A stretch of 64,000 nt of DNA from Candidatus Beckwithbacteria bacterium (GTDB lineage Bacteria > Patescibacteriota > Microgenomatia > UBA1400 > UBA1449), in contig JAAZOH010000038.1 in the NCBI GenBank assembly GCA_012797845.1, positions 11,919-75,918 on the forward strand. Direction: 5' to 3'. The notes beneath the pieces were generated by a model. The model had not been told where the DNA came from. It did no database searches and saw only the letters and a program-made list of their open reading frames with translations. How positions within the stretch are numbered: the first letter of the stretch is position 1; each line of letters starts with the position of its first letter. This document shows, piece after piece, positions 1 through 38,457 of this stretch. A program made the position numbers and the translations under genes.

Positions 1-14
1 ATCCAATTGAAAAA

Positions 15-458
15 TTGGAAAAGATTAAACTAGATCACGAGTCTCAAAGAGTGAGAAGTATTAATAAAAATAATGATAGTCCCAAAGTGATACAAAGCAC
101 AAAATATTTAGCAGCCATTCAAATTATAACTGGCATGCAATTGATAAACGCTGTAGCAGGTTATCATGCATACTCGGCATCATTTGACGAGACTGATGAT
201 GAAGAATTATATAAACTAATTAAAGAATTCCTAGTCTGTTTGAAAGATCTTGATGCTCTAATTGATGTTAGCGAAGGACTTAAGTTAGATATCGCAAGGG
301 AAATTAAAAGATTAATAGCTAAACTTAACAGCCATGGTTATTATGTTTACTGTGCCACGGTTTTGGATAAACTTCGAATGAATGGCAAAGATACCCCATG
401 GAAAACTTTCTATTGTGTTCTATCTTCAAATCCATCAATAAAGTACTTGATTAGGTAG
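15..458 (+). CDS. hypothetical protein
   Basis: Intact 147-aa ORF; no recognisable motif. Confidence 0.4.
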   Translation: MEKIKLDHESQRVRSINKNNDSPKVIQSTKYLAAIQIITGMQLINAVAGYHAYSASFDETDDEELYKLIKEFLVCLKDLDALIDVSEGLKLDIAREIKRLIAKLNSHGYYVYCATVLDKLRMNGKDTPWKTFYCVLSSNPSIKYLIR

Positions 459-680
459 TTCTTTTTATACTGTCTCATTTGTCTCGTTTTTGCTAAAATT
501 TACTCGAGTTATAGTGATCAAAAGGTTCTAGACCGACTTGTCTCATCTTTTCGGATTCGCACAACAGAGGTATGGGATAAGACTGGACTAGACCGGTACG
601 CTCAGCCAAGACGGGCACCCCGGAGTGACCGGAGTGCCTAAATGGCCCGAAAAGACTTGCTAAAACCCTATTTTTTCCTC

Positions 681-840
681 TGGAGATTCGAACCGTAAAA
701 ACCCCTAAAAAACCAGACTTTGAGGCTACGGTTCTGAATCATCATTGCCCTCAAATCCTACTCAAGGCTAAAATTCTCCAAAATAGCCTCAAATTATAGA
801 ACCAGGATTCGAACCGATGGGACTTATAGGATGCGCGTGC
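681..840 (-). other. degenerate tRNA-like T-arm motifs (possible tRNA remnants / integration scars)
   Basis: Two copies of gattcgaacc (reverse complement of the tRNA T-arm GGTTCGAATC) at 681-695 and 805-818. The 780->681 stretch has acceptor-like termini (tggaga / tctcca) but the T-stem does not pair, so it is not a functional tRNA. Confidence 0.3.
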
Positions 841-870
841 CAAACAATTGTAGAATATGCACAAAAAACT

Positions 871-1623
871 TTATGTTTGTGAAACTATGCTTTCAGTGGC
901 TTTCGATGTTGTTAAAAACTTATGAATAGCTTCGATTTCTTCTGAATTTAGCTTGATAGATGATTTGTTGATGACATACTTATGAAATCCTCTTCCTCCA
1001 ATCCATATGTCATTAATTTTTCCGTGAATGGTTTGTTTATCGATTTTTCCGTTAGGAAATTCTAATAAACCAGTCACGTCATATCTTTTTCCAAGATGTT
1101 TATATACGTAATCTGATAGCCACATTTTTTCTGCAAATGTTTGTTGCAGATAGTTCTTTACGGGAATAGCGTTTTTAACAAGAAGTTTTTCGTTTACAAA
1201 ACTCACCAGACCATTTTCTGATTTAACTTCTATCGCAAAAATTCCATTCGGTCCAATGACAATAAAATCAATATTTCCGTGTCCGGTATTAAAATCTTTG
1301 ACGATGAGATATTCTTGGGGTAGTAGTTCCAGTATTTTTTCTTCTATCAACTCAGCTCCAGCTCCCTTTCCCCATGTGTTGTAGTTTCTTCTTACATCCT
1401 GTCTGTTTTGTCTATCCATTTTTTGGACAAACTTTATGGCAAATATAAAAATAACTGATGATATTACCAATCCAATCAATGAATAATTTGTTTTCTGTAA
1501 CATTACGAGAAATAAATAAAGTAACCATAGGTAAGTAATACCAATGATCAAATGAATGATCCAAAATATTTTTTTATTTCTTTTATATTCCCTGAATGTA
1601 TAGGAATTAGAATTGTCAGCCAT
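871..1623 (-). CDS. NERD domain-containing membrane protein
   Basis: N-terminal TM helices followed by GKGAGAE...IDFIVIG...IEVKS pattern typical of the NERD (nuclease-related) domain. Confidence 0.6.
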   Translation of the reverse strand: MADNSNSYTFREYKRNKKIFWIIHLIIGITYLWLLYLFLVMLQKTNYSLIGLVISSVIFIFAIKFVQKMDRQNRQDVRRNYNTWGKGAGAELIEEKILELLPQEYLIVKDFNTGHGNIDFIVIGPNGIFAIEVKSENGLVSFVNEKLLVKNAIPVKNYLQQTFAEKMWLSDYVYKHLGKRYDVTGLLEFPNGKIDKQTIHGKINDIWIGGRGFHKYVINKSSIKLNSEEIEAIHKFLTTSKATESIVSQT

Positions 1624-1790
1624 AAAAATGTACTAAGATATACTTATATAGTATCATTTGGTACACTCTGGATGTTGAGGCTAGGGAGAGAATTGCGATC
1701 CGGCAGCCAAGCAGTGCACCCCTAAAGATCGTGATCTCTAATTATTTCTTTAAACTTGTGTAACAGTGATATTGGCGAAGAAAATTTTGA

Positions 1791-2429
1791 CTATTCTCCA
1801 AATTTATCTCTACAAAATTTATGAAGAACGTCAAATGCACTTATAAATTCTTCGGACAAATGATAAATTCTGAGAGCTGCCGAGGTATAATTATTTGATC
1901 CCGCCTTACTTAATTTCCATTCCTGAGACATGGCATAGTGCTTACCATCTTTATCAATAAAAGTGTTTAGAGATAATTCCTCGTTCAAGAGTATAAGGTT
2001 TTTATCTAACTTATATTTGAGTACTTGTGTTTTTTTATCAATAAAAGAAAAATCTGTTGGGTTATTCTCTAGATAATTACTGTAGTAATTAAGTGGTTTT
2101 CGAACGGATTCATGGTGACGATTAACGTAACCCCCCTGTTTGGCAGTCCATTGAACATCTTTCGGAATCATTTCTAAAATTTTCCGATATATTGCTAAAT
2201 CCCAAGTTTGATATCTCTTTTTAAGAGGATCTTGTTTTTGAGCAGCTAAAACTAAATCATTTATTGATCCATCTTTCGTAGATAGTTGAGAAATAGCTTC
2301 GAGATAATCTATTCTAGATTCTTGCATTCTTCGAGCGACCTTCTCACCAATTAGCTTCCACTCTTTTAATAGTTCAGCAGTAAACCTGGATTCATCCCCA
2401 TCTATATATTTAGCGTGGGTTTGACACAT
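1791..2429 (-). CDS. hypothetical protein
   Basis: 212-aa ORF. Its start lies only 4 bp from the divergent ORF at 2434. Confidence 0.4.
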   Translation of the reverse strand: MCQTHAKYIDGDESRFTAELLKEWKLIGEKVARRMQESRIDYLEAISQLSTKDGSINDLVLAAQKQDPLKKRYQTWDLAIYRKILEMIPKDVQWTAKQGGYVNRHHESVRKPLNYYSNYLENNPTDFSFIDKKTQVLKYKLDKNLILLNEELSLNTFIDKDGKHYAMSQEWKLSKAGSNNYTSAALRIYHLSEEFISAFDVLHKFCRDKFGE

Positions 2430-2433
2430 CCTG

Positions 2434-2775
2434 ATGCCTATATTGCTATTGAAACCTAATAAACAAATTAATCGTTATTTTCTCGATGTTTTTGATGATA
2501 TGTCTCCTAGAATGCTACTGCGAAAACGAGTCAGACAATACATTGATTATTTTGAAGAAGAAATCTGGCAAGACAAAACTGGTAAACCATTTCCTAAGGT
2601 TATTCTAATCTGCCCTGATGAAAGATCTAAAAATTATTTGGAGAAGTTTGTAAAAAATAGTTTAGAGTGTGATATAGATTTTTATCTGAGTTTAAAAAAT
2701 AAGGTTAGTTGGGAAAACATTTTGAATTTAAGTGTATATATAGTAAAAATAAATAGGATTTTATTTTTACTATAA
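2434..2775 (+). CDS. hypothetical protein
   Basis: 113-aa ORF, no motif recognised. Confidence 0.3.
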   Translation: MPILLLKPNKQINRYFLDVFDDMSPRMLLRKRVRQYIDYFEEEIWQDKTGKPFPKVILICPDERSKNYLEKFVKNSLECDIDFYLSLKNKVSWENILNLSVYIVKINRILFLL

Positions 2776-2832
2776 TATGTTACAATTACATTCCCAAAAA
2801 TTACTAAAAATAAACACTTTTTTAAAGGAATT

Positions 2833-3642
2833 ATGACAGAAGATTTTAGAAAAATAATGGCAGCTAGGGCAGCAGGAGTAACAATTATTACAGAAGAAGA
2901 AACTGCAAGAGAAAGACAAAAAACCGCAGAAAGATTTCAAAGGATGGTTGAAAGAGCTGGGGTTATGGATGTACTAGAATTTGCTGCTTTAAGTATAGAA
3001 AAATATCACAGCAGTAGAGACAATGCTGGAGATGTAAAAGTTGGAAAAGCAGCTGTTGATAGATTGGGAGTACAATTTATGGGTAAACACATGCTTTGCC
3101 GACCTAACCGTTTTAATAATACTACTGTTGGTTTAGAAATGTATTTTCGAGACAGAGATGGTGATATCGTTAGTAAACAACCAATTTTTGCAATTACCAT
3201 TGATCCCAAAATGAGAGACACAGATGTTTTTATACTTTCATGTGCAATCAGGGAACTAGGATCAAATTCACATTTTACTGATTCTGGAGTATATTTTCAA
3301 AGGTATGAGTGTGGTACGAGCGCTGATTTTGCCAATGCTATGATGAGTTTTTTAACAGCACCAAAAGTAGATAGGTCAGCCTATAATAGCCAAATAACTC
3401 TCCGTTATGTTGTAGAACAATATGGGGCAGAACATATACCATCTTTTTATGAATATGATTGTTTGGGAGATATTCCGATAGAATTAGTTGCTCCTAACGA
3501 TTCCCCCTTAATAAAAATTGCAGAAAATCTTGCTTACTCTTGTCCTACAATAGGACACCATCTTGGTAAACCAATGGCTATACTCAGAGATGCTAACATA
3601 TTTCGGTTAACTGCTCCCATTGTACTTAAAGGAAGAAATTAA
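2833..3642 (+). CDS. hypothetical protein
   Basis: 269-aa ORF preceded by AAAGGA RBS-like sequence. Visibly less AT-rich than its neighbours. Confidence 0.45.
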   Translation: MTEDFRKIMAARAAGVTIITEEETARERQKTAERFQRMVERAGVMDVLEFAALSIEKYHSSRDNAGDVKVGKAAVDRLGVQFMGKHMLCRPNRFNNTTVGLEMYFRDRDGDIVSKQPIFAITIDPKMRDTDVFILSCAIRELGSNSHFTDSGVYFQRYECGTSADFANAMMSFLTAPKVDRSAYNSQITLRYVVEQYGAEHIPSFYEYDCLGDIPIELVAPNDSPLIKIAENLAYSCPTIGHHLGKPMAILRDANIFRLTAPIVLKGRN

Positions 3643-3883
3643 TATATACCTTCAAGACCAAAAGACTTGTTGGGGTAGTTGCTCAAAAAAGAAGAACCTT
3701 AACTTTAACTGGCGAATTGTTTTACTGCCCGACCATTTGGCTGATTACATTGTCATTCACGAACTGTGTCACCTGAAGGAGTTTAGTCACTCTCGAAGAT
3801 ACCGGAACTTAATGGCAAGTGTGCTGCCTAACTATCAAGAGCTTATCACAGAATTAAAAACCAGTGGTTTATCGTTAGTATAA
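3620..3883 (+). pseudogene. C-terminal fragment of YgjP/DUF45 (M48-like HExxH) metallohydrolase
   Basis: 87-aa ORF containing WRIVLLPDHLADYIVIHELCHLKEFSHS, which matches the HExxH-bearing C-terminus of YgjP-family proteins. The N-terminal ~140 aa of the family are absent. Confidence 0.55.
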
Positions 3884-4080
3884 TCAAGCTGTTAAATAAT
3901 TGAGGTTTTGACTGTAAAGGAACTCACGATAATAAGTTCCCACATAGTCGATCAGTCCAGCCCCCTCAAGGAATACCCTATCAAACTATATCTATAGAAA
4001 GCTGGATTCGAACTGGAAAAGAAAAAATTTGTTTTTCAGACTTATGATACAATTAGACAAGTAATAAATGTAAATTCTAA

Positions 4081-4099
4081 TAGCTGCCAGGTGCAGCTA
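4081..4099. promoter_or_regulatory. palindrome tagctgc-N5-gcagcta upstream of MSNEDL paralog 1
   Basis: 7-bp perfect inverted arms. The same element occurs at 6909-6929 before paralog 2. Confidence 0.5.
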
Positions 4100-4846
4100 T
4101 TTTTTACACTTATGTCAAATGAAGATCTTAGAGGCAAGTTGCGAAAACAAGTAACTGATCATGCTGATTTTTTGTTGGCTGATAAAGAGCAACAAAAAAG
4201 AATTTTACTAGCAGAAGAGCGAAAACGTATCAGACAGATGGTAAAGGAGCATGAACTCATGAAACAACTAGAAGTGGCAGATGTGTTACAGATGCTTGTT
4301 GATATTGCAAATGAGGACTCAATAGATATGCAACCACTTGCTGAGGTAATTCAGGAAGGAAATGTAAAACATTGCGAGAATGGAAGAGTTGAAGTTATTA
4401 CTGGCATGCTGCCAAACCAGGGAACTAGAGTTAAAAAAGGAATATTGGCTGTAATACCGGAATTTAGAACAGAAAAAAATAACCCAACTTTACTATTTGC
4501 TAGAAGATCTCTGGATAGTAAATATGAACTATATTTACCAGAAAATTGCATTGTTTATCAACAAGTTGAATGTTCTAGCTCTGATCAGGTGGGAGAAGTA
4601 GCATTGCAAATGCTTTTACTTGATAAAAGCATGGAAGACTTATATAAAGAATCTTTTGGACGTTTTGCTCTTATTGGCTTTGGTGTTTCCCAATTATCTT
4701 TTAGTAGTAACCTTTTAGACTCAAAGATTTTTAGCCAAATGTCATTATCTCTTTTTGCAACGTTTGGGAAAACTGCCACTAGTGTAGTTAGTCGAATGAG
4801 AAAAAGTAGCCATATCTACGATAGAGCAAAGAACTATTTACTTTAA
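4091..4846 (+). CDS. MSNEDL-family protein, paralog 1 (possible ATP-grasp substrate/partner)
   Basis: ORF track starts at a GTG inside the palindrome. The likely true start is the ATG at 4112 (MSNEDLRGK...). Shares N-terminus and internal motifs (LxxLVxxANxD, LLFARRSLD/LLIARPPKD) with the ORF at 6941. Confidence 0.55.
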   Translation: MQLFFTLMSNEDLRGKLRKQVTDHADFLLADKEQQKRILLAEERKRIRQMVKEHELMKQLEVADVLQMLVDIANEDSIDMQPLAEVIQEGNVKHCENGRVEVITGMLPNQGTRVKKGILAVIPEFRTEKNNPTLLFARRSLDSKYELYLPENCIVYQQVECSSSDQVGEVALQMLLLDKSMEDLYKESFGRFALIGFGVSQLSFSSNLLDSKIFSQMSLSLFATFGKTATSVVSRMRKSSHIYDRAKNYLL

Positions 4847-4939
4847 ATAATTAGAATATAAAATTTTGACATCCCAATTAGTTTAATTATGTAGTTTTTT
4901 ATATCAAAATTAATTTACTCTGTTCAGAAATATTTTTAA

Positions 4940-5956
4940 ATGCAATTTGAAAGAGAATTGAAAACACAAGAAATTGAACCCGGGACAAGTGGTCTTGTTT
5001 TACTTGTCAGTAGGCAGTTTGATCCTCATGTTGATTTTATTATTGAAAAGTTGAGATCAGAAAACATCCAGTTTGCCAGATTTAACACTGAAGATTTTCC
5101 AAGAAATACTTCCGTAAGTTTGTATTTGGGAGATGGCGAGACATCTGGATTATTGGATGTGCCCAACAACTTACCTTTTTTGCTAAACCAAACCAGATCA
5201 ATTTTATACAGGAGACCAGCAGAACCTAATCCACCAGATAATTTAACCAAGGGCTTTGAAGAATTTGTGGTTTCTGAGAGCAAATCAGTTATAAAAGGTT
5301 TATGGTCGTTACCCGATGTTACTTGGGTAAATTACCCGGAAGACAATCGAAGAGCTGCTATCAAACTAGATCAGCTAAGACAGGCCCAAATACTGGGTCT
5401 TTCTATTCCCAAAACTCTAGTCTCCAATAATATTATTGACATTAGATCCTTTTTTGACCTGTGTCATGGAAGCATGATAGTAAAACCTTTAACCGTAGGA
5501 AGTATCGAAGAAGATGGTATATATAAAGCTTTCTATACTAGCAAAGTTGAACCGGAACATTTAGACCAACTTGGCCCGGATAATAGATGTCCTTATGTAT
5601 TTCAAGAAAATATTCCCAAGGAACTAGAATTGAGAATAACTATTGTTGGAAATAGTGTGTTTGCAGCCGAAATCTTTTCTCAAGAACAAGAAGGAGCTGA
5701 GACCGATTGGAGAAAAAAGTGGGAAGGCTTACGCTACGGAATTCATGAGCTTCCCGAGGATATTAAAAATAAATGTTTGAAATTAGCTAGACATTATAAT
5801 CTAAATTTTGGAGCAATAGATATGATAGTAACTCCTAGAGGTGAATATGTTTTTTTAGAAATCAATCCAAATGGTCAATGGGTTTGGATAGAGCTTGAAA
5901 CTGGATTACCAATATCAGAAGCTATGATAAAACTTCTTTCTGAGAATAAGCACTAA
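4940..5956 (+). CDS. ATP-grasp ribosomal peptide maturase (MvdD/MvdC-like, graspetide family)
   Basis: N-terminal pre-ATP-grasp pattern VDFIIEKLRSENIQFARFNTEDFP... and C-terminal GAIDMIVTPRGEYVFLEINPNGQWVWIELETGLPISEAMI, matching the microviridin-type ATP-grasp hallmark. Confidence 0.7.
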   Translation: MQFERELKTQEIEPGTSGLVLLVSRQFDPHVDFIIEKLRSENIQFARFNTEDFPRNTSVSLYLGDGETSGLLDVPNNLPFLLNQTRSILYRRPAEPNPPDNLTKGFEEFVVSESKSVIKGLWSLPDVTWVNYPEDNRRAAIKLDQLRQAQILGLSIPKTLVSNNIIDIRSFFDLCHGSMIVKPLTVGSIEEDGIYKAFYTSKVEPEHLDQLGPDNRCPYVFQENIPKELELRITIVGNSVFAAEIFSQEQEGAETDWRKKWEGLRYGIHELPEDIKNKCLKLARHYNLNFGAIDMIVTPRGEYVFLEINPNGQWVWIELETGLPISEAMIKLLSENKH

Positions 5957-6465
5957 GGTTTATTGAGTTTTTTTACAGTTTTAAATGTTTCTTTTAAAGG
6001 AGAAATATCAAATTTTTTTCGCAAAGAATCAGGAATGATATTTTCATAATTAGAAATAACCCATTTGTCTTTTTTAAGCTCGAATTGTGTTACAAAAAGT
6101 TGTGGCCTGGAAATGCTTAAAAGAAATCTGTCTATGGCTAAGGCCATATAATTTTTACACCAGTCATCTCCTAATACGCTTCCAATAGAATAAAGGGTAA
6201 CAGCCAAAGCATAATCATTATAATTAGAACCGTGATGAAAAAAATGCCCTGCCCGAAAATAATCATCTGCTGTTTTTAGTTCTCCCTTTTTAAGCATTTT
6301 CAAAACTAGGTCTTTTATTTCTACTTCTTCTTGGTAAAGCTTTTTAATCAAATTCTTTTGTTTCTTTAAGTCAAACACATATCTTTTTTTTTGAACCTTT
6401 TCAAATAGTTTAATAAGTTTTTTGTTTGAATTTGGAGATTTATTAAAATAACCCTTTTTTACCAT
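5953..6465 (-). CDS. hypothetical Lys-rich protein
   Basis: 170-aa ORF convergent with the ATP-grasp gene. Confidence 0.4.
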   Translation of the reverse strand: MVKKGYFNKSPNSNKKLIKLFEKVQKKRYVFDLKKQKNLIKKLYQEEVEIKDLVLKMLKKGELKTADDYFRAGHFFHHGSNYNDYALAVTLYSIGSVLGDDWCKNYMALAIDRFLLSISRPQLFVTQFELKKDKWVISNYENIIPDSLRKKFDISPLKETFKTVKKLNKP

Positions 6466-6533
6466 ATAAATAAATTCTTACAACCTTATCTAAAGGTAAT
6501 GCAAGATTTTGATTAAAATATTTTATGTTTCAC

Positions 6534-6725
6534 TTAATCATCTCGACCTTGATCAATTTGTGTGACATCTACGCTGATATGTGTTGGAACAGTACAGATT
6601 GTTCCAGCTGCATTAGCATGTCCCGCAGTCCATGTTTGACTATCAGGATCATATTGTCCTTCAACAGGAGCTAGATCAGCAATTGCAATGTCTTCAGTAA
6701 ACTGGGAAACAAATTCTTTTGACAT
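6534..6725 (-). CDS. small peptide, candidate RiPP (graspetide) precursor
   Basis: 63-aa ORF with a strong SD (AGGAGGTGA) 8 nt upstream of the ATG. Acidic leader-like N-terminus and a Thr/Ser/Asp-rich C-terminal half. Lies ~600 bp from the ATP-grasp maturase. Confidence 0.5.
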   Translation of the reverse strand: MSKEFVSQFTEDIAIADLAPVEGQYDPDSQTWTAGHANAAGTICTVPTHISVDVTQIDQGRDD

Positions 6726-6908
6726 AACTTCTCACCTCCTTGTAAACTTTTGCTTATACTTTCAGTTTTGCATTATGTTTAAAAAATATTTAAAAGTCAA
6801 ATAAACACAAAAAAGGCTGAGCCATGAATAGAGTTCAGTGAGTTAAAAGCGAAAATTAAGGAGAAAAATATGATATAATTCTCCTTATTATATTAATAAT
6901 AAATAGAC

Positions 6909-6929
6909 TAGCTGCCAACTGTGCAGCTA
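6909..6929. promoter_or_regulatory. palindrome tagctgc-N7-gcagcta upstream of MSNEDL paralog 2
   Basis: Same inverted-repeat arms as 4081-4099, followed by a conserved tattttt...ATG..aatgaaga block. Confidence 0.5.
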
Positions 6930-6940
6930 TTTTTGTAAAT

Positions 6941-7663
6941 ATGAGCAATGAAGACTTAAAATGTAAAGCATTGGCTGGTCTAAAAAAAGGCCAACAAGCA
7001 AATTCAACAGTAGAAGAAGCAAAAGAAGCTAAGGCTCGATTTAAAAAAGATCAGTTGAGAAAATTACAAGTTCAAGAAACATTGACTTTTTTAGTTGAAG
7101 CTGCAAACACTGATGATCCTGAATTAGGAGAAATTAGAGAAGCAATGCATGTAAGATTTGGAGAACAAAAATTATCAGTTGAATATAACGAAGACCAGAC
7201 TATTGTATTGTTACAAAATTCTAGTAAAAAGACTGTAATGGCTATTGGTGTAGAAACCTATGGTCGAGATAATAAAAGTAGAGGTTCGTTGTTAATCGCT
7301 AGGCCTCCAAAAGATATCAAAGCAACATTTCGCAGAGACACATCTGAACCAGTATTGTTTATGAGAAAAAAATGTATAGATACGGGCGCTGTTGCGTCAA
7401 GTGTAATGGAATTTATAACTACTGATCAAGTTACTGAAGGTAGATGTCCAAGTGATGTTGGAGAAGATTTTTTGAGTAAATACCCTGGTTTGAGCTATGA
7501 TTACGCTGTTTTTGAAGAAATGTATGAGTTAGCATATCCCGATACTGATTCAGCTCCAAAATTAAATATATCATATAGTTATACAAATGATCTTCCTATG
7601 CATGTAGGCTGTAATAGCTATGTTCAATGGATGTTTGGAAAATATTTCGCAAATCGAGCTTAG
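6941..7663 (+). CDS. MSNEDL-family protein, paralog 2
   Basis: 240-aa ORF starting MSNEDLKCK. Distant paralog of 4112-4846. Confidence 0.55.
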   Translation: MSNEDLKCKALAGLKKGQQANSTVEEAKEAKARFKKDQLRKLQVQETLTFLVEAANTDDPELGEIREAMHVRFGEQKLSVEYNEDQTIVLLQNSSKKTVMAIGVETYGRDNKSRGSLLIARPPKDIKATFRRDTSEPVLFMRKKCIDTGAVASSVMEFITTDQVTEGRCPSDVGEDFLSKYPGLSYDYAVFEEMYELAYPDTDSAPKLNISYSYTNDLPMHVGCNSYVQWMFGKYFANRA

Positions 7664-7902
7664 TATAAACATTAAATTTTTGTATCAAAGTAATCTCCTT
7701 TTGCATTTATTCATATAATCTTAATAGTGTAACAAAATAAAAAAACATGAACCAAGAGACTGTATTTATTTTTAATACAAGCTTATTTTGGTAAAAAAAT
7801 TTAACTAATTAAGTATTGAGCCAAATAAAAAGTTCTGACATAGTCCACTAGTGCCAGCAGCCACGTATAATCTTGAGAGATTGACCGTACTCTCTAGTTA
7901 CT

Positions 7903-8421
7903 ATGAATGAAGCTACTGTTTCGATTTTTACAACCTTAACCATATTATTAATCGTAGGATTTGTAATCAAATTATTCTTAAGACTTGTTTTTCAAAAATT
8001 TCCAAGAACATCCAAGTCAATACATACTTATTTGTATAAAACTAGAAGTTTTTTTCTAACCAAGCCAGAGCATGAGCTTTTTGATATTTTAGTAAAAAAC
8101 TTTGGAGATACATATTATATTTTCCCCCAAGTCCATCTATCTTCAATTTTTAACCATAAAATTAAAGGTCAAAACTGGCAAAGTGCTCTTAATCATATAG
8201 ATAGAAAATCTATCGATTTTCTGTTTTGTGATAAAGCTTATATTAAACCAATCTTAGCTATTGAACTTGATGATTCTAGTCATCAAAGGGAAGATAGAAT
8301 TATTCGAGATAGTGAAGTTGAACAGAATTTTGAAAATGCAAACTTACCCTTATTACGGTTTAATAGCCAGGAAAGATTTCACAACGAAGAAATGTTTGAG
8401 AAAATTAGAGAAAAACTTTAA
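7903..8421 (+). CDS. DUF2726 domain protein (PD-(D/E)xK-like nuclease fold) with N-terminal TM
   Basis: SIDFLFCDKAYIKPILAIELDDSSH...LPLLRF pattern typical of DUF2726. Confidence 0.5.
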   Translation: MNEATVSIFTTLTILLIVGFVIKLFLRLVFQKFPRTSKSIHTYLYKTRSFFLTKPEHELFDILVKNFGDTYYIFPQVHLSSIFNHKIKGQNWQSALNHIDRKSIDFLFCDKAYIKPILAIELDDSSHQREDRIIRDSEVEQNFENANLPLLRFNSQERFHNEEMFEKIREKL

Positions 8422-8543
8422 TTTACAATAATCCTCTTCCACTTCAAAAGAAAAAAATCTCGAAAATAAAATTATTAGTTTGATTATTCTATTTTTATAA
8501 ATTTTCTTCTTTTGGTATAATCTCAGTGGATGAATACATATAA

Positions 8544-8996
8544 ATCTTCTCATAAGGTTTTTGTCTAAAGCAGACATCATTTCGATGTCTGAATTGTCGT
8601 GCCATCATTTCCAATACCTGTTTAGGAAGCAAACACCGCAACCATTGTCCAATATGTTTATGGTCTAGACATCTCGATCTTACTATTCCTGGTGATAGAA
8701 AGTCTCGTTGTGGCTCAAAAATGAAACCAATAGGATTAGTATTTAAACATATTACCTATAATCCATTTACTGATAAGACAAGTGGTGAACTGATGATAGT
8801 ACATCTATGTCTAAACTGTGACAAAATCTCGACAAATAGAATTGCCGGAGATGATAATGCTCAAAGTATTATTCAACTACTAGATGAGCCAAAATCGCTA
8901 GATCCTACTTTAATTCATAGATTACATTGTTCAAACCTTACCCCACTTACCCGTCAAGATGAGCAACAAGTCTTGGCTTGTTTATTTGGTTATTGA
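8544..8996 (+). CDS. RNHCP domain protein; N-terminal part lacks a canonical start codon
   Basis: First ATG is at 8721. The in-frame upstream translation (no stop back to 8544) reads FRCLNC...ANHCPICLWSRHLD, which matches the RNHCP motif, but contains no ATG/GTG/TTG. Confidence 0.5.
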
Positions 8997-9055
8997 GGTT
9001 TTTTTATTGATTAATAAACTCAATATTATTTACAATTTTATTGTAAAATAGCTCT

Positions 9056-11900: not shown

Positions 11901-12992
11901 ATGGCTAAATCAGATAATTCCTTAATCCATATCCATGAAGTGGTTAAAACCTATGAAACCGAGGCCGGAGATTTTACAGCCCTTAATAAAATTAATCTTT
12001 CGGTTGGTAAAAGCGAATTTGTCGGAATTATTGGCAAATCCGGGAGTGGTAAATCAACTTTGATCAACATGTTGACAGGGATTGACCGCTCGACAGCTGG
12101 CCAAATTGTCATCAATGGGACTGATATTACTAAACTTGATGAAGGCCAAATGGCGGTTTGGCGAGGCAAAAATATGGGGATTGTGTTCCAGTTTTTCCAA
12201 CTCTTACCTACGCTTACCGTTATTGAAAACATCATGTTGCCAATGGATTTTTGTAATGTTTATAAGCCAAATCAACGCAGCCAAAAAGCTTTGGAGTTGT
12301 TAGGGCAAGTTGATTTGGCAGACCAAGCTCATAAATTCCCCAGCCAACTATCAGGTGGACAGCAGCAGCGGATTGCTATTGCTCGAGCTTTAGCCAATGA
12401 CCCGCCGATTATTTGTGCCGATGAACCAACCGGCAACTTAGATTCTAAAACAGCTGAACAAATTTTTGGTCTGTTTCAGTCTTTAGTTGATAGTGGCAAA
12501 ACTATCGTTATGGTGACTCACGATAAAGATCTAGCTAAAAAAGTCAGTCGGACGATTTTAATTGCTGATGGCCAAGTGATTGAAGAATACCTAATGAGCA
12601 CTTTTTCCTCTCTAGCTCCTGCCAAATTAGCCTGGGTGACTGAGCAAGTCGAAACTGCTGAATTTGCACCAGGCAAGCTGATTGTCAAAGAAGGTGAGGT
12701 TATGAATTATTTTTATGTGATTATGAATGGTATGGTTGAGATTGTAATTTCTAAAAATAAAAAAGAAAAAATCTTAGGAACCTTTGGGCGAGGTAAATAT
12801 TTTGGAGAAATAGAGCTATTTCATGATACTAAAAGTATAGCTTCAGCTCGAGCTGGCAAAAAAGGTGTCCGGATTGGCCGGATTAAAAAAGATGTTTTTA
12901 ATCAAATTGTGCATGAAACCCCGGTTTTGGGAAAGAAACTTCGTAACTTAGCTAGTAAACATTGGGAAGAAAATAAAACTGCTAGAAAGTAA
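11901..12992 (+). CDS. ABC transporter ATP-binding protein (MacB/LolD-like) fused to a C-terminal cyclic nucleotide-binding domain
   Basis: Walker [10 protein letters not shown], signature [15 protein letters not shown], Walker B. C-terminal [10 protein letters not shown]...ARA pattern typical of cNMP-binding domains. Confidence 0.7.
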
Positions 12993-12994
12993 TT

Positions 12995-15376
12995 ATGAAT
13001 CCTCGATGGAACAAAGTTTGGCGTGATTTGTGGGCCAACAAAAGTCGGACTATTGTTGTGGTTTTAGCTATTGCTGTAGGAGTTATGGCTTTTTCTTCAG
13101 TTTTTATTACCAGAGCTGTGTTACTCAAAGACATGAACACTCAATACACAGCTATTAATCCTTCCAGTGTAATTTTACGTTTTCGGGATGGTTTTGAGCC
13201 TGATTTGGTCAACTGGATCGAAACTCAAAAAGGAGTTAAAGCAGCTCGGGCCACTGGTGGGACTTTGGTGCGGATCTTTACTCCTCAAGGTGCTAGAAAT
13301 GTGGAATTAATTGCCCTAAATGATTATGACAAAATTTTAGTGAATCAAGTTACTCCAGAAACTGGGTCTTGGCCACCCCAACGTAAAGAACTAATTTTTG
13401 AGCGGCGTTCGGCTTTAGCTCTCCCCTACCAGTTGGGTGATGATATCGAAATTGAAACGCCAAAAGGCCGGCAAAAAACCTTAAACTTTGCTGGAACAGT
13501 TCATGATTTACGAGCTATACCAGCTAATCTGTTTCCTCAGTTTACGGCTTATGTTTCTTTTGACACGATCCGCTATTTGGATGAAAGTGATGTCCTTACC
13601 AGTCTGGAAATCCAAACTGACGATACAATTAAAACTAAAGACAAAGCTTTAGCTTTAGGGAATCAGCTTAAAAAAGACTTAGAAAATCGAGGTTTTGAGC
13701 ATATCAGTGTTAGAGCTGAAGATCCCAACAAACATTGGAGTCAGGATGTAACCAGTGCTTTTGTGATGATTCTGACTATTATCGGAGCTTTTTCCTTAGT
13801 GTTATCTTTGTTTTTAGTTTTCAACACAGTTTCAGCTATTGTAGTTCAGCAAAAAAAACAGATTGGCATTATGAAAGCCATTGGAGCTAAACGGCTCCAA
13901 ATTAGTATTTTATTTTTAGCTATGGCTTTAAGCTACGGTTTCCTATCGCTTTTAGTAGCCATTCCAGTTGGAGCCTTGTTGGGTTATGGAAGCTTAGCCA
14001 TGGTAACAAATTTTTTAAATTTGGAAATTTTAGATTTTCATATTCCGCCAATGGTACTAGCTATGGAAACAGGTATTGCTTTAGTAGTACCGGTTATTGC
14101 TGCTTTAATTCCTATTATTCAAGGTACTAAGATTACCGTTCGAGAAGCTATCAGTGATTATGTGGTAGCTAAACAGCAAAAATCCTGGCTTAATTCTTTA
14201 TTAACCGAACTGACGATGTTGTCGAGGCCAATGGCAGTTTCATTACGTAATACCTTCCGGCAAAAAGGCCGACTGATTCTAACGTTGGTAACTTTAACAA
14301 TAGCCGGAACACTCTTTGTCAGTGTAATTGGAGTGCGCAGCTCTATGGTTGTTGAGCTCAATAATATTTTGGAACTGAATAACTATGACATGGAACTGTA
14401 TTTTGATGGGACGTATGATAGCCAAAAAGTCACTACTGATACTCAAAAAGTTGAAGGCGTAGCAGAAGCTTATACTCCACTAAATATTTCCGGTGAGTGG
14501 CAAAAAAATAGTGGCTCAGAAAGTGATCAAAAGGAATTCATCCCGATTCAAGGATATATACCCAACTCTCAGTTTTCACTGGTTACTATTACCAGGGGCC
14601 GGAATTTACAACGCAGCGACAGTAACCAAATTATTATTTCCAATAAATTTTTGCGAGATGATCCAAGCATAGAAGTAGGTAAAACGCTAACCTTTACTAT
14701 TAATGACAAAGATTATGATTTTGAAATTGTCGGTGTGTACCTGCTAGCTGATACTAAAATGGTTTTGGTAAACAGCAATTATTTGCGCAAAATCGTGCCA
14801 GATGCTGATCAAGCTAGTAGTGTTCAGATCAAAACTACCAAGCATGATTCAGCCTTTTTGATAAGTTTTGCTAAGACTGTCGAAGAAAGCATGAAACGAC
14901 GGGGTTATGATGTGGCTTATTCTCTAACGATTGACAGTATTCGCAGCGCTTCTGCCGGTCAATTTGATTTTCTGGTGGGATTTTTGATGATGATGGCGGC
15001 TTTAGTAGCGGTAGTTGGTGGCCTCGGCTTAGCTGGCACCATGTCTTTAAATGTTTTAGAGCGAACTAGAGAAATTGGAGTAATGCGCTCAATTGGTGCT
15101 TCAAACAGCTCGGTGTTTAGATTGGTTATTGTGGAGAGTTTAAGCATCGGTTTTATTAGTTGGTTGATCGCAGTGCCTTTATCAGTGCCTGTAGGATTAG
15201 GTTTTTGTTATGCTTTGGGAACAGCTTTTTTTGAAGAAGTTTTACCATATGTTTTTTCACCAGTTGGTATGCTTATCTGGTTAGTGTTGGTTATTGTGAT
15301 TGCTGTTTTGGCTAGTATAGCTCCTGCTAAAAAAGCAGTTAGCCTAACTGTCAGAGACACTTTATCATACGAATAA
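12995..15376 (+). CDS. ABC transporter permease, FtsX/MacB-like (two FtsX modules)
   Basis: 793 aa with two TM clusters and a large extracytoplasmic domain. Translationally coupled to the upstream ATPase. Confidence 0.65.
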   Translation: MNPRWNKVWRDLWANKSRTIVVVLAIAVGVMAFSSVFITRAVLLKDMNTQYTAINPSSVILRFRDGFEPDLVNWIETQKGVKAARATGGTLVRIFTPQGARNVELIALNDYDKILVNQVTPETGSWPPQRKELIFERRSALALPYQLGDDIEIETPKGRQKTLNFAGTVHDLRAIPANLFPQFTAYVSFDTIRYLDESDVLTSLEIQTDDTIKTKDKALALGNQLKKDLENRGFEHISVRAEDPNKHWSQDVTSAFVMILTIIGAFSLVLSLFLVFNTVSAIVVQQKKQIGIMKAIGAKRLQISILFLAMALSYGFLSLLVAIPVGALLGYGSLAMVTNFLNLEILDFHIPPMVLAMETGIALVVPVIAALIPIIQGTKITVREAISDYVVAKQQKSWLNSLLTELTMLSRPMAVSLRNTFRQKGRLILTLVTLTIAGTLFVSVIGVRSSMVVELNNILELNNYDMELYFDGTYDSQKVTTDTQKVEGVAEAYTPLNISGEWQKNSGSESDQKEFIPIQGYIPNSQFSLVTITRGRNLQRSDSNQIIISNKFLRDDPSIEVGKTLTFTINDKDYDFEIVGVYLLADTKMVLVNSNYLRKIVPDADQASSVQIKTTKHDSAFLISFAKTVEESMKRRGYDVAYSLTIDSIRSASAGQFDFLVGFLMMMAALVAVVGGLGLAGTMSLNVLERTREIGVMRSIGASNSSVFRLVIVESLSIGFISWLIAVPLSVPVGLGFCYALGTAFFEEVLPYVFSPVGMLIWLVLVIVIAVLASIAPAKKAVSLTVRDTLSYE

Positions 15377-35384: not shown

Positions 35385-36089
35385 ATGAGCCTAAAAAACA
35401 AAACTATTCTTATTTCTGGAGGCAATTCTGGTTTGGGGTTTGAGATTAGTAAACAATTAATTAGATTGGGTTCTAAAGTGATTATTCTAGGTAAAAATCA
35501 GAATAATCTTAACCTTGCAGTTAAAAAACTTAAATCCCCATTTGCCTCTTCGATGGTTTGCGACCTAACTAATGCTGAAGAAATTGAAAAATTAAACATT
35601 GGCAAGCTCGATATTTTAATCAACTGTGCCGGAGTTATCAAATATTCACCACTAGAAAAACACAGTATTACTGATATCAAAAACATTATTGATACTAATC
35701 TGATAGGAACTATTTTACTGACTAGGCAAGTTTTGCCAATTTTGAAAAAACAAAATTCAGGGATTATTGTCAATATTTCCTCGACTTCCGGTTTAATGAC
35801 AGGTGGCCATGCTTATGAAAGTGTATATATTGCCAGTAAATTTGGCGTCACTGGCTTTACGGAAAGTTTAAAAAAAGAAATGGCAGAGGAAGGTAAAAAT
35901 ATTAAAGTCTTAGGTTTTTATCCCGGTGGTATGAATACCCCACTTTTTACTAAATCTGGTGAAGATAAAGACACCACAAATTTTATGGATCCAGCTGAAA
36001 TTGCTAAAATTTTAGTTTTTATGTTGCAACAGCCTGATGCTGTATCTATGGATCATATTGTGGTTAATCGAAATAAAACTGCTAAGTAA
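35385..36089 (+). CDS. SDR family oxidoreductase
   Basis: ISGGNSGLGFEI Rossmann motif and YxxxK. Start set at the ATG with AAAAGGAG RBS. Confidence 0.65.
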   Translation: MSLKNKTILISGGNSGLGFEISKQLIRLGSKVIILGKNQNNLNLAVKKLKSPFASSMVCDLTNAEEIEKLNIGKLDILINCAGVIKYSPLEKHSITDIKNIIDTNLIGTILLTRQVLPILKKQNSGIIVNISSTSGLMTGGHAYESVYIASKFGVTGFTESLKKEMAEEGKNIKVLGFYPGGMNTPLFTKSGEDKDTTNFMDPAEIAKILVFMLQQPDAVSMDHIVVNRNKTAK

Positions 36090-36192
36090 ATATTTGCTCT
36101 CAATATTTCAATAGTTTAGTAATTAGTTTTATAGGCTTAAAAATTAATCTAAAATGCTATAATGCTTATATTTATTTATATATAAGGATATT

Positions 36193-36783
36193 ATGGCTGA
36201 ACGAGTTGCAGTTTTAGATTATGGCAATCTTGATTTTATTGATAGAGCTAAAGCTAGTAGTAATGTAGAGCTTACACGACTAATAGTTGGATTATTTGTA
36301 ACGACAACTGATGAAAATGGTGAATTTTGTGTGGTTTTACAAAGAAGATCAAAACATAAAAAAGAATTTCCAGATTGTTTAACTTTTTTAGTTTCTGGCC
36401 ATGTTGATGAACAAGACATGTATCATGTATTTGCTTTACCTCAAACTTTACTTGAAGCTTTGACTGATACCGCTTTATTAAGAGAATCATTTGAAGAAAT
36501 AGGTATTACAATAGAAAAATTTGATGAAACAAGATGTTTTGATAGTGAGATAAGAGAAAATAATATACCAGCCAAGCAAATGCATATTAAAACAATTTGT
36601 ATAGATAGGTCTGTTTTAGGAGAACTACGTTACAATCCTGAAGAAGTTGACGGCATAGAGGTTGTTCCACTCAAAAAAATTATAGAGCAAATAAAACTAT
36701 CACCAGAAGAAAGGGAAGCTGGTTTTGAATTCACCACTCCGTTTGAAGAATTTATGAGATTAGTTTTTAATAAGCTTTTATAG
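36193..36783 (+). CDS. hypothetical protein, weak Nudix-like motif
   Basis: EALTDTALLRESFEEIGI approximates the Nudix box. Confidence 0.35.
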   Translation: MAERVAVLDYGNLDFIDRAKASSNVELTRLIVGLFVTTTDENGEFCVVLQRRSKHKKEFPDCLTFLVSGHVDEQDMYHVFALPQTLLEALTDTALLRESFEEIGITIEKFDETRCFDSEIRENNIPAKQMHIKTICIDRSVLGELRYNPEEVDGIEVVPLKKIIEQIKLSPEEREAGFEFTTPFEEFMRLVFNKLL

Positions 36784-36825
36784 TCTGTTCCCGCTTTGGG
36801 GCCAACTGTAAACATAAAAGCTAAA
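36781..36825. repeat. imperfect direct repeat (copy A) of the purA 3' end
   Basis: tagtctgttcccgctttgg plus similar downstream sequence; matches 38476-38520. Confidence 0.7.
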
Positions 36826-36885
36826 TATTTATGGTTAAAAATCATACTATTTGCTACTATTAATGCAAATATAAAATTATGATTT

Positions 36886-38457
36886 ATGACTTTCAAAAAA
36901 TATAAAATATTTAATAATAATTTTTTTTGGTTTTTTTTGTTATTTACTTTTTTTATCTTAATTCAAATAGACTTTTATAATCATGGAGCTTTATCAGATG
37001 ATTTAGCTGAATACATACAAAACCCTCTTAGAATAATTAATGGACAAATTCCATACAAAGATTTTTGGCTTTTATTTCCTCCTGGAGAAGTTTATGTTCC
37101 AGCACTAGTATATAAAATTTTTGGATTACAAATAAAAAGTATTTTATTATTTAATGTTTTTATAAAAAGTCTTGTTTCATCAGCAGTTTTTATATTAATG
37201 AAGTTAATTTGTAAAAAAAATATTTATGCAGCAGTTTCGGCGATTCTGTTTTTTTTCATGGGAGATTTACAAATTTACATGTTTTTTTTACTTTTTTCAT
37301 TTTTATTTATTTATGAATATCTTTTTACAGAAAATAGATTTTGGTTATTTATGGCTGGTTCTTTTGTAGGGGTAGCTTTTAATTTTAGATTTTTTTTAAC
37401 AGGTGCTTTTGCTTTTTCCGTAATTACATTATTAGTTCTAAAAATAGGGAAAATTAAATTATTATTGCAAAATATTTTGACATTTATTTTAGGAACATTT
37501 CTTATTTTTACTTTTAACTTTTGGTTATATAAAAAATTCTTTTTTGCAATGATACAGGAAACAGTTTTAAAAGGACTAAAACATGGGACAACGATGGATA
37601 TAAATTATATTGATCAAATTTTTATTAGTTTAGATATTTTAAAAAAATCTTTCTCAACTCTTTTAAACCAATTTGGCATTATGAACAGTTGGTCATTCAT
37701 GGTATTTTTTTTCGAATTTATTCTGACCGTTTGTCTTTATGCTTTGCCATTTTTGGCAATTTTAATAGCAATTTATTTATTATTTTTTAAAAAAAGAAAT
37801 TTTATTAAAAAAGAAATTATTTATTTATTATTAATTTGGGGAACACTAGTTTTTTTAAAAAGTATTCGTAAACCAGACCCTGAACACCTAGTATATGCAA
37901 ATTCTATTTTTTTACTTCTTTTTATTTACATTTTTTCAAAACTTAAAACAAGCAAACTTAAATCATTAATGAATATAGTTATTATCATTTTTTTAATGCG
38001 TTTATATGTTTTTGCTTTTCACTACTATTTTAATTTTAGAATTCCTCAATATAACGTAACTGCAAAGTTTGGGACATTACAGGTTAGCAACGAATATGAG
38101 GCAAAAAAATTGCAATCGGTGATTAGATTTATTGAGCAAAACAGTTCTAGGAATGATTATATTTTAAACACACTGTTTTATTCACCTCCATTTTACGCAA
38201 TGACAGGAAGAAAAAATGCTACTTATTATGATTCTTTAATTGATCTTTTTACAAATAAAAATTTTCAAAAAGAAAAAATGATTTGTAATCAAATTTTAAA
38301 CAGTAATACTAAATTAGTAATACATAATCCTAAATGGAAATTTGGAGATAGAGGTGAGTTCGACCAACAGTTACCAATATTGCAAAAATGTATAGATCAA
38401 AATTTTGTTCTTAAAGAAAAAAATGATGAATATTGGCTTTATAAAAAAATGAGTTAA
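36886..38457 (+). CDS. GT-C-like polytopic membrane protein (putative glycosyltransferase), very AT-rich
   Basis: PYKDFWLLFPPGE first-loop motif typical of PMT/ArnT-like GT-C enzymes. Extreme Phe/Ile/Lys bias. Confidence 0.45.
   Translation: MTFKKYKIFNNNFFWFFLLFTFFILIQIDFYNHGALSDDLAEYIQNPLRIINGQIPYKDFWLLFPPGEVYVPALVYKIFGLQIKSILLFNVFIKSLVSSAVFILMKLICKKNIYAAVSAILFFFMGDLQIYMFFLLFSFLFIYEYLFTENRFWLFMAGSFVGVAFNFRFFLTGAFAFSVITLLVLKIGKIKLLLQNILTFILGTFLIFTFNFWLYKKFFFAMIQETVLKGLKHGTTMDINYIDQIFISLDILKKSFSTLLNQFGIMNSWSFMVFFFEFILTVCLYALPFLAILIAIYLLFFKKRNFIKKEIIYLLLIWGTLVFLKSIRKPDPEHLVYANSIFLLLFIYIFSKLKTSKLKSLMNIVIIIFLMRLYVFAFHYYFNFRIPQYNVTAKFGTLQVSNEYEAKKLQSVIRFIEQNSSRNDYILNTLFYSPPFYAMTGRKNATYYDSLIDLFTNKNFQKEKMICNQILNSNTKLVIHNPKWKFGDRGEFDQQLPILQKCIDQNFVLKEKNDEYWLYKKMS

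Follow-up and report, generated by a model that had tools for sequence, protein, structure and literature searches.

A predicted three-gene graspetide cluster with a DUF6624-like partner protein in a Candidatus Beckwithbacteria genome

Results and discussion

The stretch analyzed here, a 64,000-nucleotide segment of contig JAAZOH010000038.1 from a Candidatus Beckwithbacteria bacterium (hereafter the window), encodes an ATP-grasp ligase which appears to belong to a compact cluster for the synthesis of a graspetide, one kind of peptide that is ribosomally synthesized and then modified post-translationally (RiPP). The explanation that we favor, and consider likely when taken as a whole, is that the functional unit would comprise three genes, with those for a 63-residue precursor peptide and a DUF6624-like accessory protein being transcribed together toward the convergent ligase gene. 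The MSNEDL proteins, paralogs of approximately 245 residues which take their name from a common N-terminus, would under this explanation be Beckwithbacteria-specific orphans of a gene-poor accessory island that merely flank the cluster. An earlier interpretation of the DNA (the sequence-only reading) had proposed these paralogs as substrates of the ligase; the gene content of the cluster is here corrected to the ligase, the 63-residue precursor and the DUF6624-like partner (Table 1).

The ATP-grasp ligase

On the strength of its profile matches, the ligase is a graspetide synthetase of the microviridin type and not an enzyme of the RimK/GshB type. It carries both the FARFNTEDFP motif and the C-terminal sequence by which the sequence-only reading had recognized it. 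Pfam searches recover the MvdD pre-ATP-grasp domain (PF21068) with 44.7 bits against a cut-off of 27, together with a marginal RimK-type ATP-grasp C-terminal domain. Among the NCBIfam models, those for RiPP maturases match strongly (GRASP_SAV_5884, TIGR04187, E 8e-77; MvdD, 5e-70; MvdC, 4e-69; grasp-with-spasm, 2e-30), as against 9e-10 for rimK_fam (38 bits versus a cut-off of 143) and 0.005 for glut_syn (16 bits versus 299). The same pattern is seen with solved structures in the PDB, where MdnC (5ig9, 1.3e-48), MdnB (5ig8, 6e-47), CdnC (7mgv, 1e-43) and AMdnB are among the best matches and RimK reaches 7e-5; these alignments run the full length of the protein, including the pre-ATP-grasp domain. 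The profile searches thus separate the enzyme from the RimK/GshB-type families (8e-77 for TIGR04187 against 9e-10 for RimK), and the Pfam, NCBIfam and PDB scores together bear out the earlier identification of a graspetide-type ATP-grasp RiPP locus. It is the only such ligase in the window.

A conserved three-gene unit

Relatives of the cluster were gathered from the contigs of the nearest ligase homologues, which are 44–50% identical, and from genome and metagenome loci recovered through alignment of the 170-residue accessory protein. In all, 27 loci were fetched, and profile searches were run on all six-frame open reading frames (ORFs) of the related loci. Thirteen distinct related sequence types (L001, L004, L005, L006, L007, L009, L010, L013, L014, L016, L017, L018 and L021), together with three more distant ones, served for comparison of the cluster. 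The 13 types have a single layout, in which a gene for a peptide of 78–88 residues precedes, on the same strand, one for a protein of about 175 residues, with the ligase gene convergent to them and abutting or overlapping the latter. Across these 13 genome and metagenome loci of the candidate phyla radiation (CPR), the only companions of the ligase that are kept are the small peptide and the ~175-residue DUF6624-like protein. The genes outside the trio are different in each locus and include helix-turn-helix regulators, MmeI-like restriction-modification genes, HEPN, cysS, NUDIX, DNA methylase and ribosomal genes. Given that the flanking genes vary in every locus, the trio can be recognized as a conserved unit. 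Relatives lie in metagenome-assembled genomes (MAGs) of Woesebacteria and Microgenomatus.

Profiles built without the window sequences recover both of the smaller genes in the window: the profile of the 13 peptides finds the 63-residue ORF with E 2.4e-10 (the next ORF has 0.2), and that of the accessory protein finds the 170-residue ORF with E 6e-59. Conservation of the gene neighborhood, which the sequence-only reading had singled out for checking, holds for the small peptide and the DUF6624-like gene, which are syntenic with the ligase, and fails for the MSNEDL paralogs, which are absent from these loci. The 170-residue gene itself had been overlooked in that reading, as had a probable third paralog and a palindrome upstream of two of the paralogs. 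The more distant ligases (40–43% identical) have the usual layout, with a small co-directional peptide gene upstream and no 170-residue partner.

An HExxH protein was considered as a fourth conserved component and rejected; it is confined to L001-3, L005 and L012, and not found in the window. Proteins of this kind, which have approximately 273–303 residues, an HEF[AG]H motif and no match in Pfam, lie beside the cluster in L001 (4955-5866, minus strand), L005 (25-846, plus strand) and L012 (1133-2012, minus strand), in the last of which it is this protein, instead of the ligase, that is encoded beside the DUF6624-like gene. The HExxH proteins of these three loci may be candidate leader peptidases elsewhere.

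In the window, no protease or exporter gene adjoins the cluster. About 5 kb away, ORFs of 363 and 793 residues (11901-15376, plus strand), which from the look of their sequences we take to be the ATPase and the large membrane permease of an ATP-binding cassette (ABC) transporter, could export the peptide; in the other loci, no such pair has been kept beside the trio.

Defense-type islands are a frequent setting for the clusters of this ligase clade. Restriction-modification or methylase genes occur near the cluster in L004 and L010, and in L025 (5260-8661) a 43%-identical homologue of the ligase lies directly upstream of a cyclic-oligonucleotide-based antiphage signaling (CBASS) operon with a SMODS cyclase, a patatin effector, E2 and a ThiF-like protein.

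The predicted precursor peptide

Judging from its motifs and genomic context, the substrate of the ligase is almost certainly the 63-residue peptide MSKEFVSQFTEDIAIADLAPVEGQYDPDSQTWTAGHANAAGTICTVPTHISVDVTQIDQGRDD. The sequence-only reading had correctly placed this gene between the two paralogs, while suggesting that the larger proteins may act in addition to it or instead of it. An alignment of 14 peptides, comprising that of the window and its relatives, displays a leader motif (P)FxxxFxE, a box of the form GxY(D/N)xxxQxW, a variable linker, and a core of the form (ER)PPT[TVI][CS]xxxT-x9-11-D-x3-DD which ends exactly at the stop codon. Conserved wherever aligned are the Glu of the leader, the G-Y and Q-W of the box, and the two Thr and three Asp (D and DD) of the core. 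None of the 14 is shorter or more divergent than that of the window, which nonetheless retains every invariant residue and has no Lys in its core. Its gene is preceded at 6 nt from the ATG by a strong Shine-Dalgarno sequence, with a promoter-like element matching the consensus further upstream (Table 1). Regular-expression and profile searches of the window find the leader and core motifs in this ORF only.

The peptides associated with the distant, 40–43% identical ligases retain PFxxx[FL] and GxYDxxxQ. The leader boxes thus vary in step with the clade of the enzyme, as would be expected of a recognition sequence.

The DUF6624-like accessory protein

The family of ~175-residue proteins contains 26 invariant positions among 15 sequences, including the motifs T-x-DD-xx-RA, F-x-H, LG, DR-x-L, Q-x-F and D-xx-R. 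The 170-residue member in the window is most likely a peptide-binding or peptide-stabilizing partner, or else a tailoring enzyme. More distant relatives (28–31% identical) are encoded in L011 (5635-6405), L022 (773-1417) and L023 (2283-2951), one of them from Citromicrobium bathyomarinum, and no ligase or precursor could be detected in the DNA fetched around them. Graspetide clusters and the CPR are therefore not the only settings in which the family occurs.

The MSNEDL paralogs

Of the 444 ORFs in the window, the two flanking paralogs, A and B, match each other best (E approximately 7e-5). Their paralogy, noted in the sequence-only reading, stands, with 27% identity over 184 residues (BLASTP E 9e-6); the similarity is not confined to the N-terminus and extends to about residue 165. 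A hidden Markov model (HMM) made from the two sequences uncovered a third and more divergent copy, C, at E 3.6e-4 (the next ORF has 0.45), and BLASTP matches C to B at 0.006. The hhalign probability for this copy is only 14%, and we regard it, from these sequence matches, as probably a paralog. The MSNEDL hexapeptide is identical in A and B and is encoded with different Ser codons (TCA and AGC), and is thus conserved at the level of the protein. These are very likely to be real genes, because by our estimate ORFs of at least 240 codons are extremely unlikely to arise by chance at 34% GC. In an AlphaFold2 model of A (predicted local distance difference test, pLDDT, of 54), the N-terminus forms a long helix, beyond which lies a region of mixed beta/alpha structure.

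Paralogs A and B have in common a 5' region consisting of a -10-like TATGATA(C/T)AAT element, a perfect palindrome with 7-bp arms (TAGCTGC-N5/7-GCAGCTA) and a T-run, which ends 11–12 nt before the ATG; neither start codon has a Shine-Dalgarno sequence. When searched with a variable gap, the palindrome occurs at these two sites only in the 64 kb and in none of 100 shuffled sequences, and a search with fixed spacing found nothing, the loop lengths being different. The combination of identical stems with unequal loops makes it possible that the element could act as a 5'-untranslated-region hairpin or attenuator, or as an operator. A and B look like separately controlled genes.

Homologues of these proteins could not be found. 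A word-indexed search of 5.8 billion proteins with A and B returned self-hits only, and a three-paralog profile compared without a word prefilter against 1.84 billion representatives recovered only the three copies and P0124, a T/V/A-rich protein of repetitive sequence whose match runs through five stretches of repeats, and which we rejected as spurious. No paralog-like ORF is present in the 27 fetched loci, where the best match has E 0.58 or worse. For the paralogs, no credible match came from Pfam, NCBIfam, PADLOC or PHROGs (the best being Cas8b at 0.0043 and CDT1_C at 0.02), fold searches were uninformative, and regular-expression and profile searches found no leader or core motifs in them.

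These results bear directly on the proposal of the sequence-only reading that the ~245-residue paralogs are leader-bearing, protein-sized substrates, whose N-terminal helical module would serve as leader alongside or instead of the small peptide. It is true that the cluster has A and B on either side of it, both on the strand of the ligase, with A ending 94 nt before the ligase start, that the family is locally present in three copies, that MSNEDL is kept despite the differing Ser codons, and that there are other graspetides whose precursors are unusually large (corallotide and groups 34, 35 and 41; PMC13097080). However, with no homologue anywhere in the collections of 5.8 and 1.84 billion proteins or in the 27 loci, the paralogs have no synteny with ATP-grasp genes elsewhere, and none of the 13 related cluster types or the three more distant ones contains a comparable ORF. 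The paralogs likewise lack FxxxFxE, GxYxxxxQxW and the T...T...D...DD core, the very features that co-vary with the ligase clade, and the leader-like motif LxxLVxxANxD, which the sequence-only reading had seen in A and B, is not conserved in C. A and B also have their own promoter-like box and palindrome, and the gap that precedes the ligase contains a TTGACA box. We consider a substrate role for the paralogs to be extremely improbable, and suggest that the idea be dropped unless experiments favor it.

Lineage-specific immunity genes are frequent in RiPP clusters, and the paralogs might be linked to the cluster in some such way, as self-immunity proteins, targets or regulators recruited in this lineage only. 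They do physically bracket the cluster, and co-regulation of A and B is suggested by the palindrome that they have in common; against this, they are not conserved with the cluster elsewhere, a fragment of a metallopeptidase gene stands between the third copy and the other two, and no fold or family match points to any function. Moreover, chance adjacency fits the patchwork character of the surrounding 9 kb, which contains NERD-like and DUF2726 genes and a YgjP fragment. A link of this kind is very unlikely in our estimation. On the whole, that the three MSNEDL-type orphans are tied to the graspetide cluster, be it as cross-linked substrates, immunity proteins or targets, is highly improbable; were it the case, this would be the first RiPP-type ATP-grasp enzyme to act on, or to be countered by, folded proteins of ~245 residues. 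The orphans are accordingly treated as neighbors of the three-gene unit.

Proposed mechanism and its assessment

Microviridin biosynthesis by MdnC/MdnB-type enzymes is the established model for leader binding, ATP activation and macrolactone closure. By analogy with it, the ligase would bind the leader of the peptide through FxxxFxE and GxYxxxxQxW, and would then use ATP to activate, by phosphorylation, the side-chain carboxylates of Asp residues in the C-terminal core. Within T-x5-T...D-x3-DD, attack by the hydroxyls of the two conserved Thr residues could then close one or two macrolactones between Thr and Asp side chains; since Lys is absent from the core, a lactam is not expected. The 170-residue protein may stabilize or present the substrate or the ligase, or may tailor the product.

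Several observations weigh against this interpretation. The ligase falls below the NCBIfam trusted cut-offs of every named RiPP subfamily, missing the equivalog level of MvdC and MvdD with 236 and 233 bits against 475 and 425, and therefore belongs to none of these named subfamilies. The matches of the accessory family to PF20329 (DUF6624) are colinear but sub-threshold (E 0.004–0.17, 12–17 bits against a cut-off of 27), the consensus sequence of the family remaining below threshold as well (E 0.041), and the structural model of the accessory protein was computed from a single sequence and is of only moderate confidence. In the window peptide, the Pro of the PF motif and the ERPP box are missing, and the linker is shorter by approximately 15–25 residues. 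The absence of paralog homologues elsewhere is compatible with a lineage-specific functional link, and the leader binding, ester cross-links, accessory role and operon structure are all inferred.

The divergence of the peptide also raises the possibility that the window contains a decaying copy of the cluster which makes no product, with a shortened precursor that is no longer recognized. The loss of the Pro, the ERPP box and the linker would fit such decay, as would the gene fragments in the neighborhood and the interrupted ligase genes of L009, L010/L020 and L017. Yet all three genes in the window are intact, all invariant residues of the peptide and the accessory protein are kept, a strong Shine-Dalgarno sequence lies upstream of the peptide, and the interruptions elsewhere may be assembly errors. 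We therefore regard decay as unlikely, and an intact three-gene cluster remains the preferred interpretation. As regards those interruptions, the ATP-grasp genes of L009 (6510-7534), L010/L020 (6511-7590) and L017 (620-1620) are each broken up into two or three ORFs; these may be assembly errors rather than pseudogenes, because the cysS gene next to the L009 ligase is also split.

The locus and its surroundings

The window has a GC content of approximately 34%. Its host, a Candidatus Beckwithbacteria bacterium (CPR/Microgenomates) represented by a MAG contig, is named after identical database proteins, which bear the locus tags GYA49_04540, GYA49_04545 and GYA49_04560. The four ORFs named in the sequence-only reading, namely the ligase, the peptide gene and paralogs A and B, are all present (Table 1). 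Rfam and tRNA scans of the window were empty.

Table 1. Features of the predicted cluster and of its immediate neighborhood, in window coordinates
Feature	Position	Strand	Evidence or remarks
Probable third paralog C (MTEDF..., 269 aa), more divergent	2833-3642	+	two-sequence HMM
Palindrome TAGCTGC-N5-GCAGCTA and T-run	4081-4099	+	12 nt before paralog A ATG; -10-like TATGATACAAT at 4043-4053
Orphan paralog A (MSNEDL..., 244 aa)	4112-4846	+	neighbor, outside the conserved module
Graspetide synthetase (predicted), 338 aa	4940-5956	+	PF21068, NCBIfam and PDB matches
DUF6624-like accessory protein, 170 aa	5953-6465	-	downstream of precursor; 4-nt overlap with ligase stop codon
Precursor peptide (predicted), 63 aa	6534-6725	-	leader FVSQFTE...GQYDPDSQTW; core TICTVPTHISVDVTQIDQGRDD-stop
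5' region of predicted precursor/accessory operon	6726-6800	-	promoter-like TTGACT-17-CATAAT (6800-6772); Shine-Dalgarno AAGGAGGTGA (6732-6741); consensus matches
Palindrome TAGCTGC-N7-GCAGCTA and T-run	6909-6929	+	11 nt before paralog B ATG; TATGATATAAT at 6869-6879
Orphan paralog B (MSNEDL..., 240 aa)	6941-7663	+	neighbor, outside the conserved module

The first 9 kb of the window (1-9000) are gene-poor and patchy, with accessory and fragmentary genes, which suggests an accessory or formerly mobile island. These include a 250-residue membrane-anchored protein (871-1623, minus strand), presumably NERD-like from a reading of its sequence, a DUF2726 protein at 7903-8421 (E 4e-26), and a 113-residue ORF (2434-2775) with weak matches to phage replication-initiator families. 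An 87-residue ORF (3620-3883, plus strand), which lies between paralogs C and A and overlaps the end of C, matches only positions 134-206 of the 207 positions of a YgjP-like metallopeptidase profile (E 4e-29), and looks like a gene remnant. Elsewhere in the window, the 2-kb bin at 36001-38000 has a GC fraction of 0.25, as against 0.31–0.40 in the other bins, and overlaps a 523-residue ORF (36886-38457).

Comparison with known systems

Makarova et al. (2022, Biol Direct 17:7, PMC8939145) reported graspetide loci from two branches of the ligase tree that belong to the CPR. These loci encode unrelated clusters of precursors with a common P-h-h-x(1,2)-h leader and cores of the form TxxxTx(6-10)Dx(1-4)D, a ubiquitous uncharacterized "cluster 23" protein with conserved His and Arg, and occasional metallopeptidases (PMC8939145). 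The present system resembles branch 1 of that study in its Microgenomates-type CPR host, its single MvdD-like ligase of approximately 327–338 residues, its small precursors with a leader that approaches the P-h-h-x(1,2)-h type and a Thr...Thr...Asp...Asp core, and its uncharacterized companion protein. There is also a parallel between the zincin-type metallopeptidases of that branch and the HExxH proteins of L001, L005 and L012. The 170-residue protein may correspond to "cluster 23". The differences lie in the spacing of the core, which is Tx5T-x9-11-Dx3DD here and thus has the same residue types as the published pattern in another arrangement, and in the leader, where the homologues have PFAxxF and the window peptide has EFVSQF without the Pro.

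In the more recent survey of Carter et al. (2026, ACS Chem Biol 21:698, PMC13097080), group 42 comprises 22 biosynthetic gene clusters, many of them from candidate phyla, with DUF6624 in 82% of the clusters, and combines a ligase and DUF6624 with a short precursor ending in ...GGTD. DUF6624 was flagged there as possibly representing an undiscovered class of proteins in graspetide biosynthesis, and the representative precursor of group 43 contains VPFTLSFVE and SYDPETQT (PMC13097080). The latter strings are very similar to the motifs PFAxxFxE and GxYDxxxQTW of the present family; however, it is an archaeal-type ATPase domain that co-occurs in group 43, and a DUF6624-like protein in the present clusters. 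Conversely, the 48-residue representative precursor of group 42 cannot be aligned with the present family, and the DUF6624 matches obtained here are sub-threshold. Groups 42 and 43 were defined by a sequence-similarity network of the ligases, whereas the likeness noted here is drawn from precursor motifs and gene content. Strings typical of the present precursor family (ERPPT, DTYVDD and QIDQGRDD) were not found in the examined supplementary files of either graspetide survey, nor was the host, and the family may thus be uncatalogued even though the kind of system is known.

The microviridin enzymes MdnC and MdnB (5ig9 and 5ig8) and the chryseoviridin enzyme CdnC (7mgv) are the best solved relatives of the ligase (E 1e-48 to 1e-43), and the PFFARFL-like hydrophobic leader motif is a further point of similarity to the microviridins. 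Unlike the latter, the present cluster has one ligase rather than two, a core that has no Lys, and hence no prospect of a lactam, and no TxKxPSD motif, and no GNAT or ABC transporter genes; the ligase itself attains 236 bits where 475 are required. In the rosaritide system, the pair MirB/MirC illustrates that a partner protein can be needed for the stability or activity of the ligase (PMC13097080). The present clusters are comparable in that a non-ligase protein strictly co-occurs beside the ligase, which might by analogy depend on it, although MirC is similar to PpiC-type peptidyl-prolyl isomerases and the partner here is a helical DUF6624-like protein.

Taken together, these comparisons place the locus in a class which has already been described bioinformatically and is experimentally untouched, and to which it adds a member. 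It brings with it a possibly uncatalogued precursor family with the leader PFxxxFxE / GxYxxxxQxW and the core Tx5T...Dx3DD-stop, strictly coupled to a DUF6624-like protein in a convergent layout. A compact three-gene cluster of this kind from small CPR genomes would be well suited to testing cleanly what DUF6624 does, and is of interest for the biology of CPR episymbionts.

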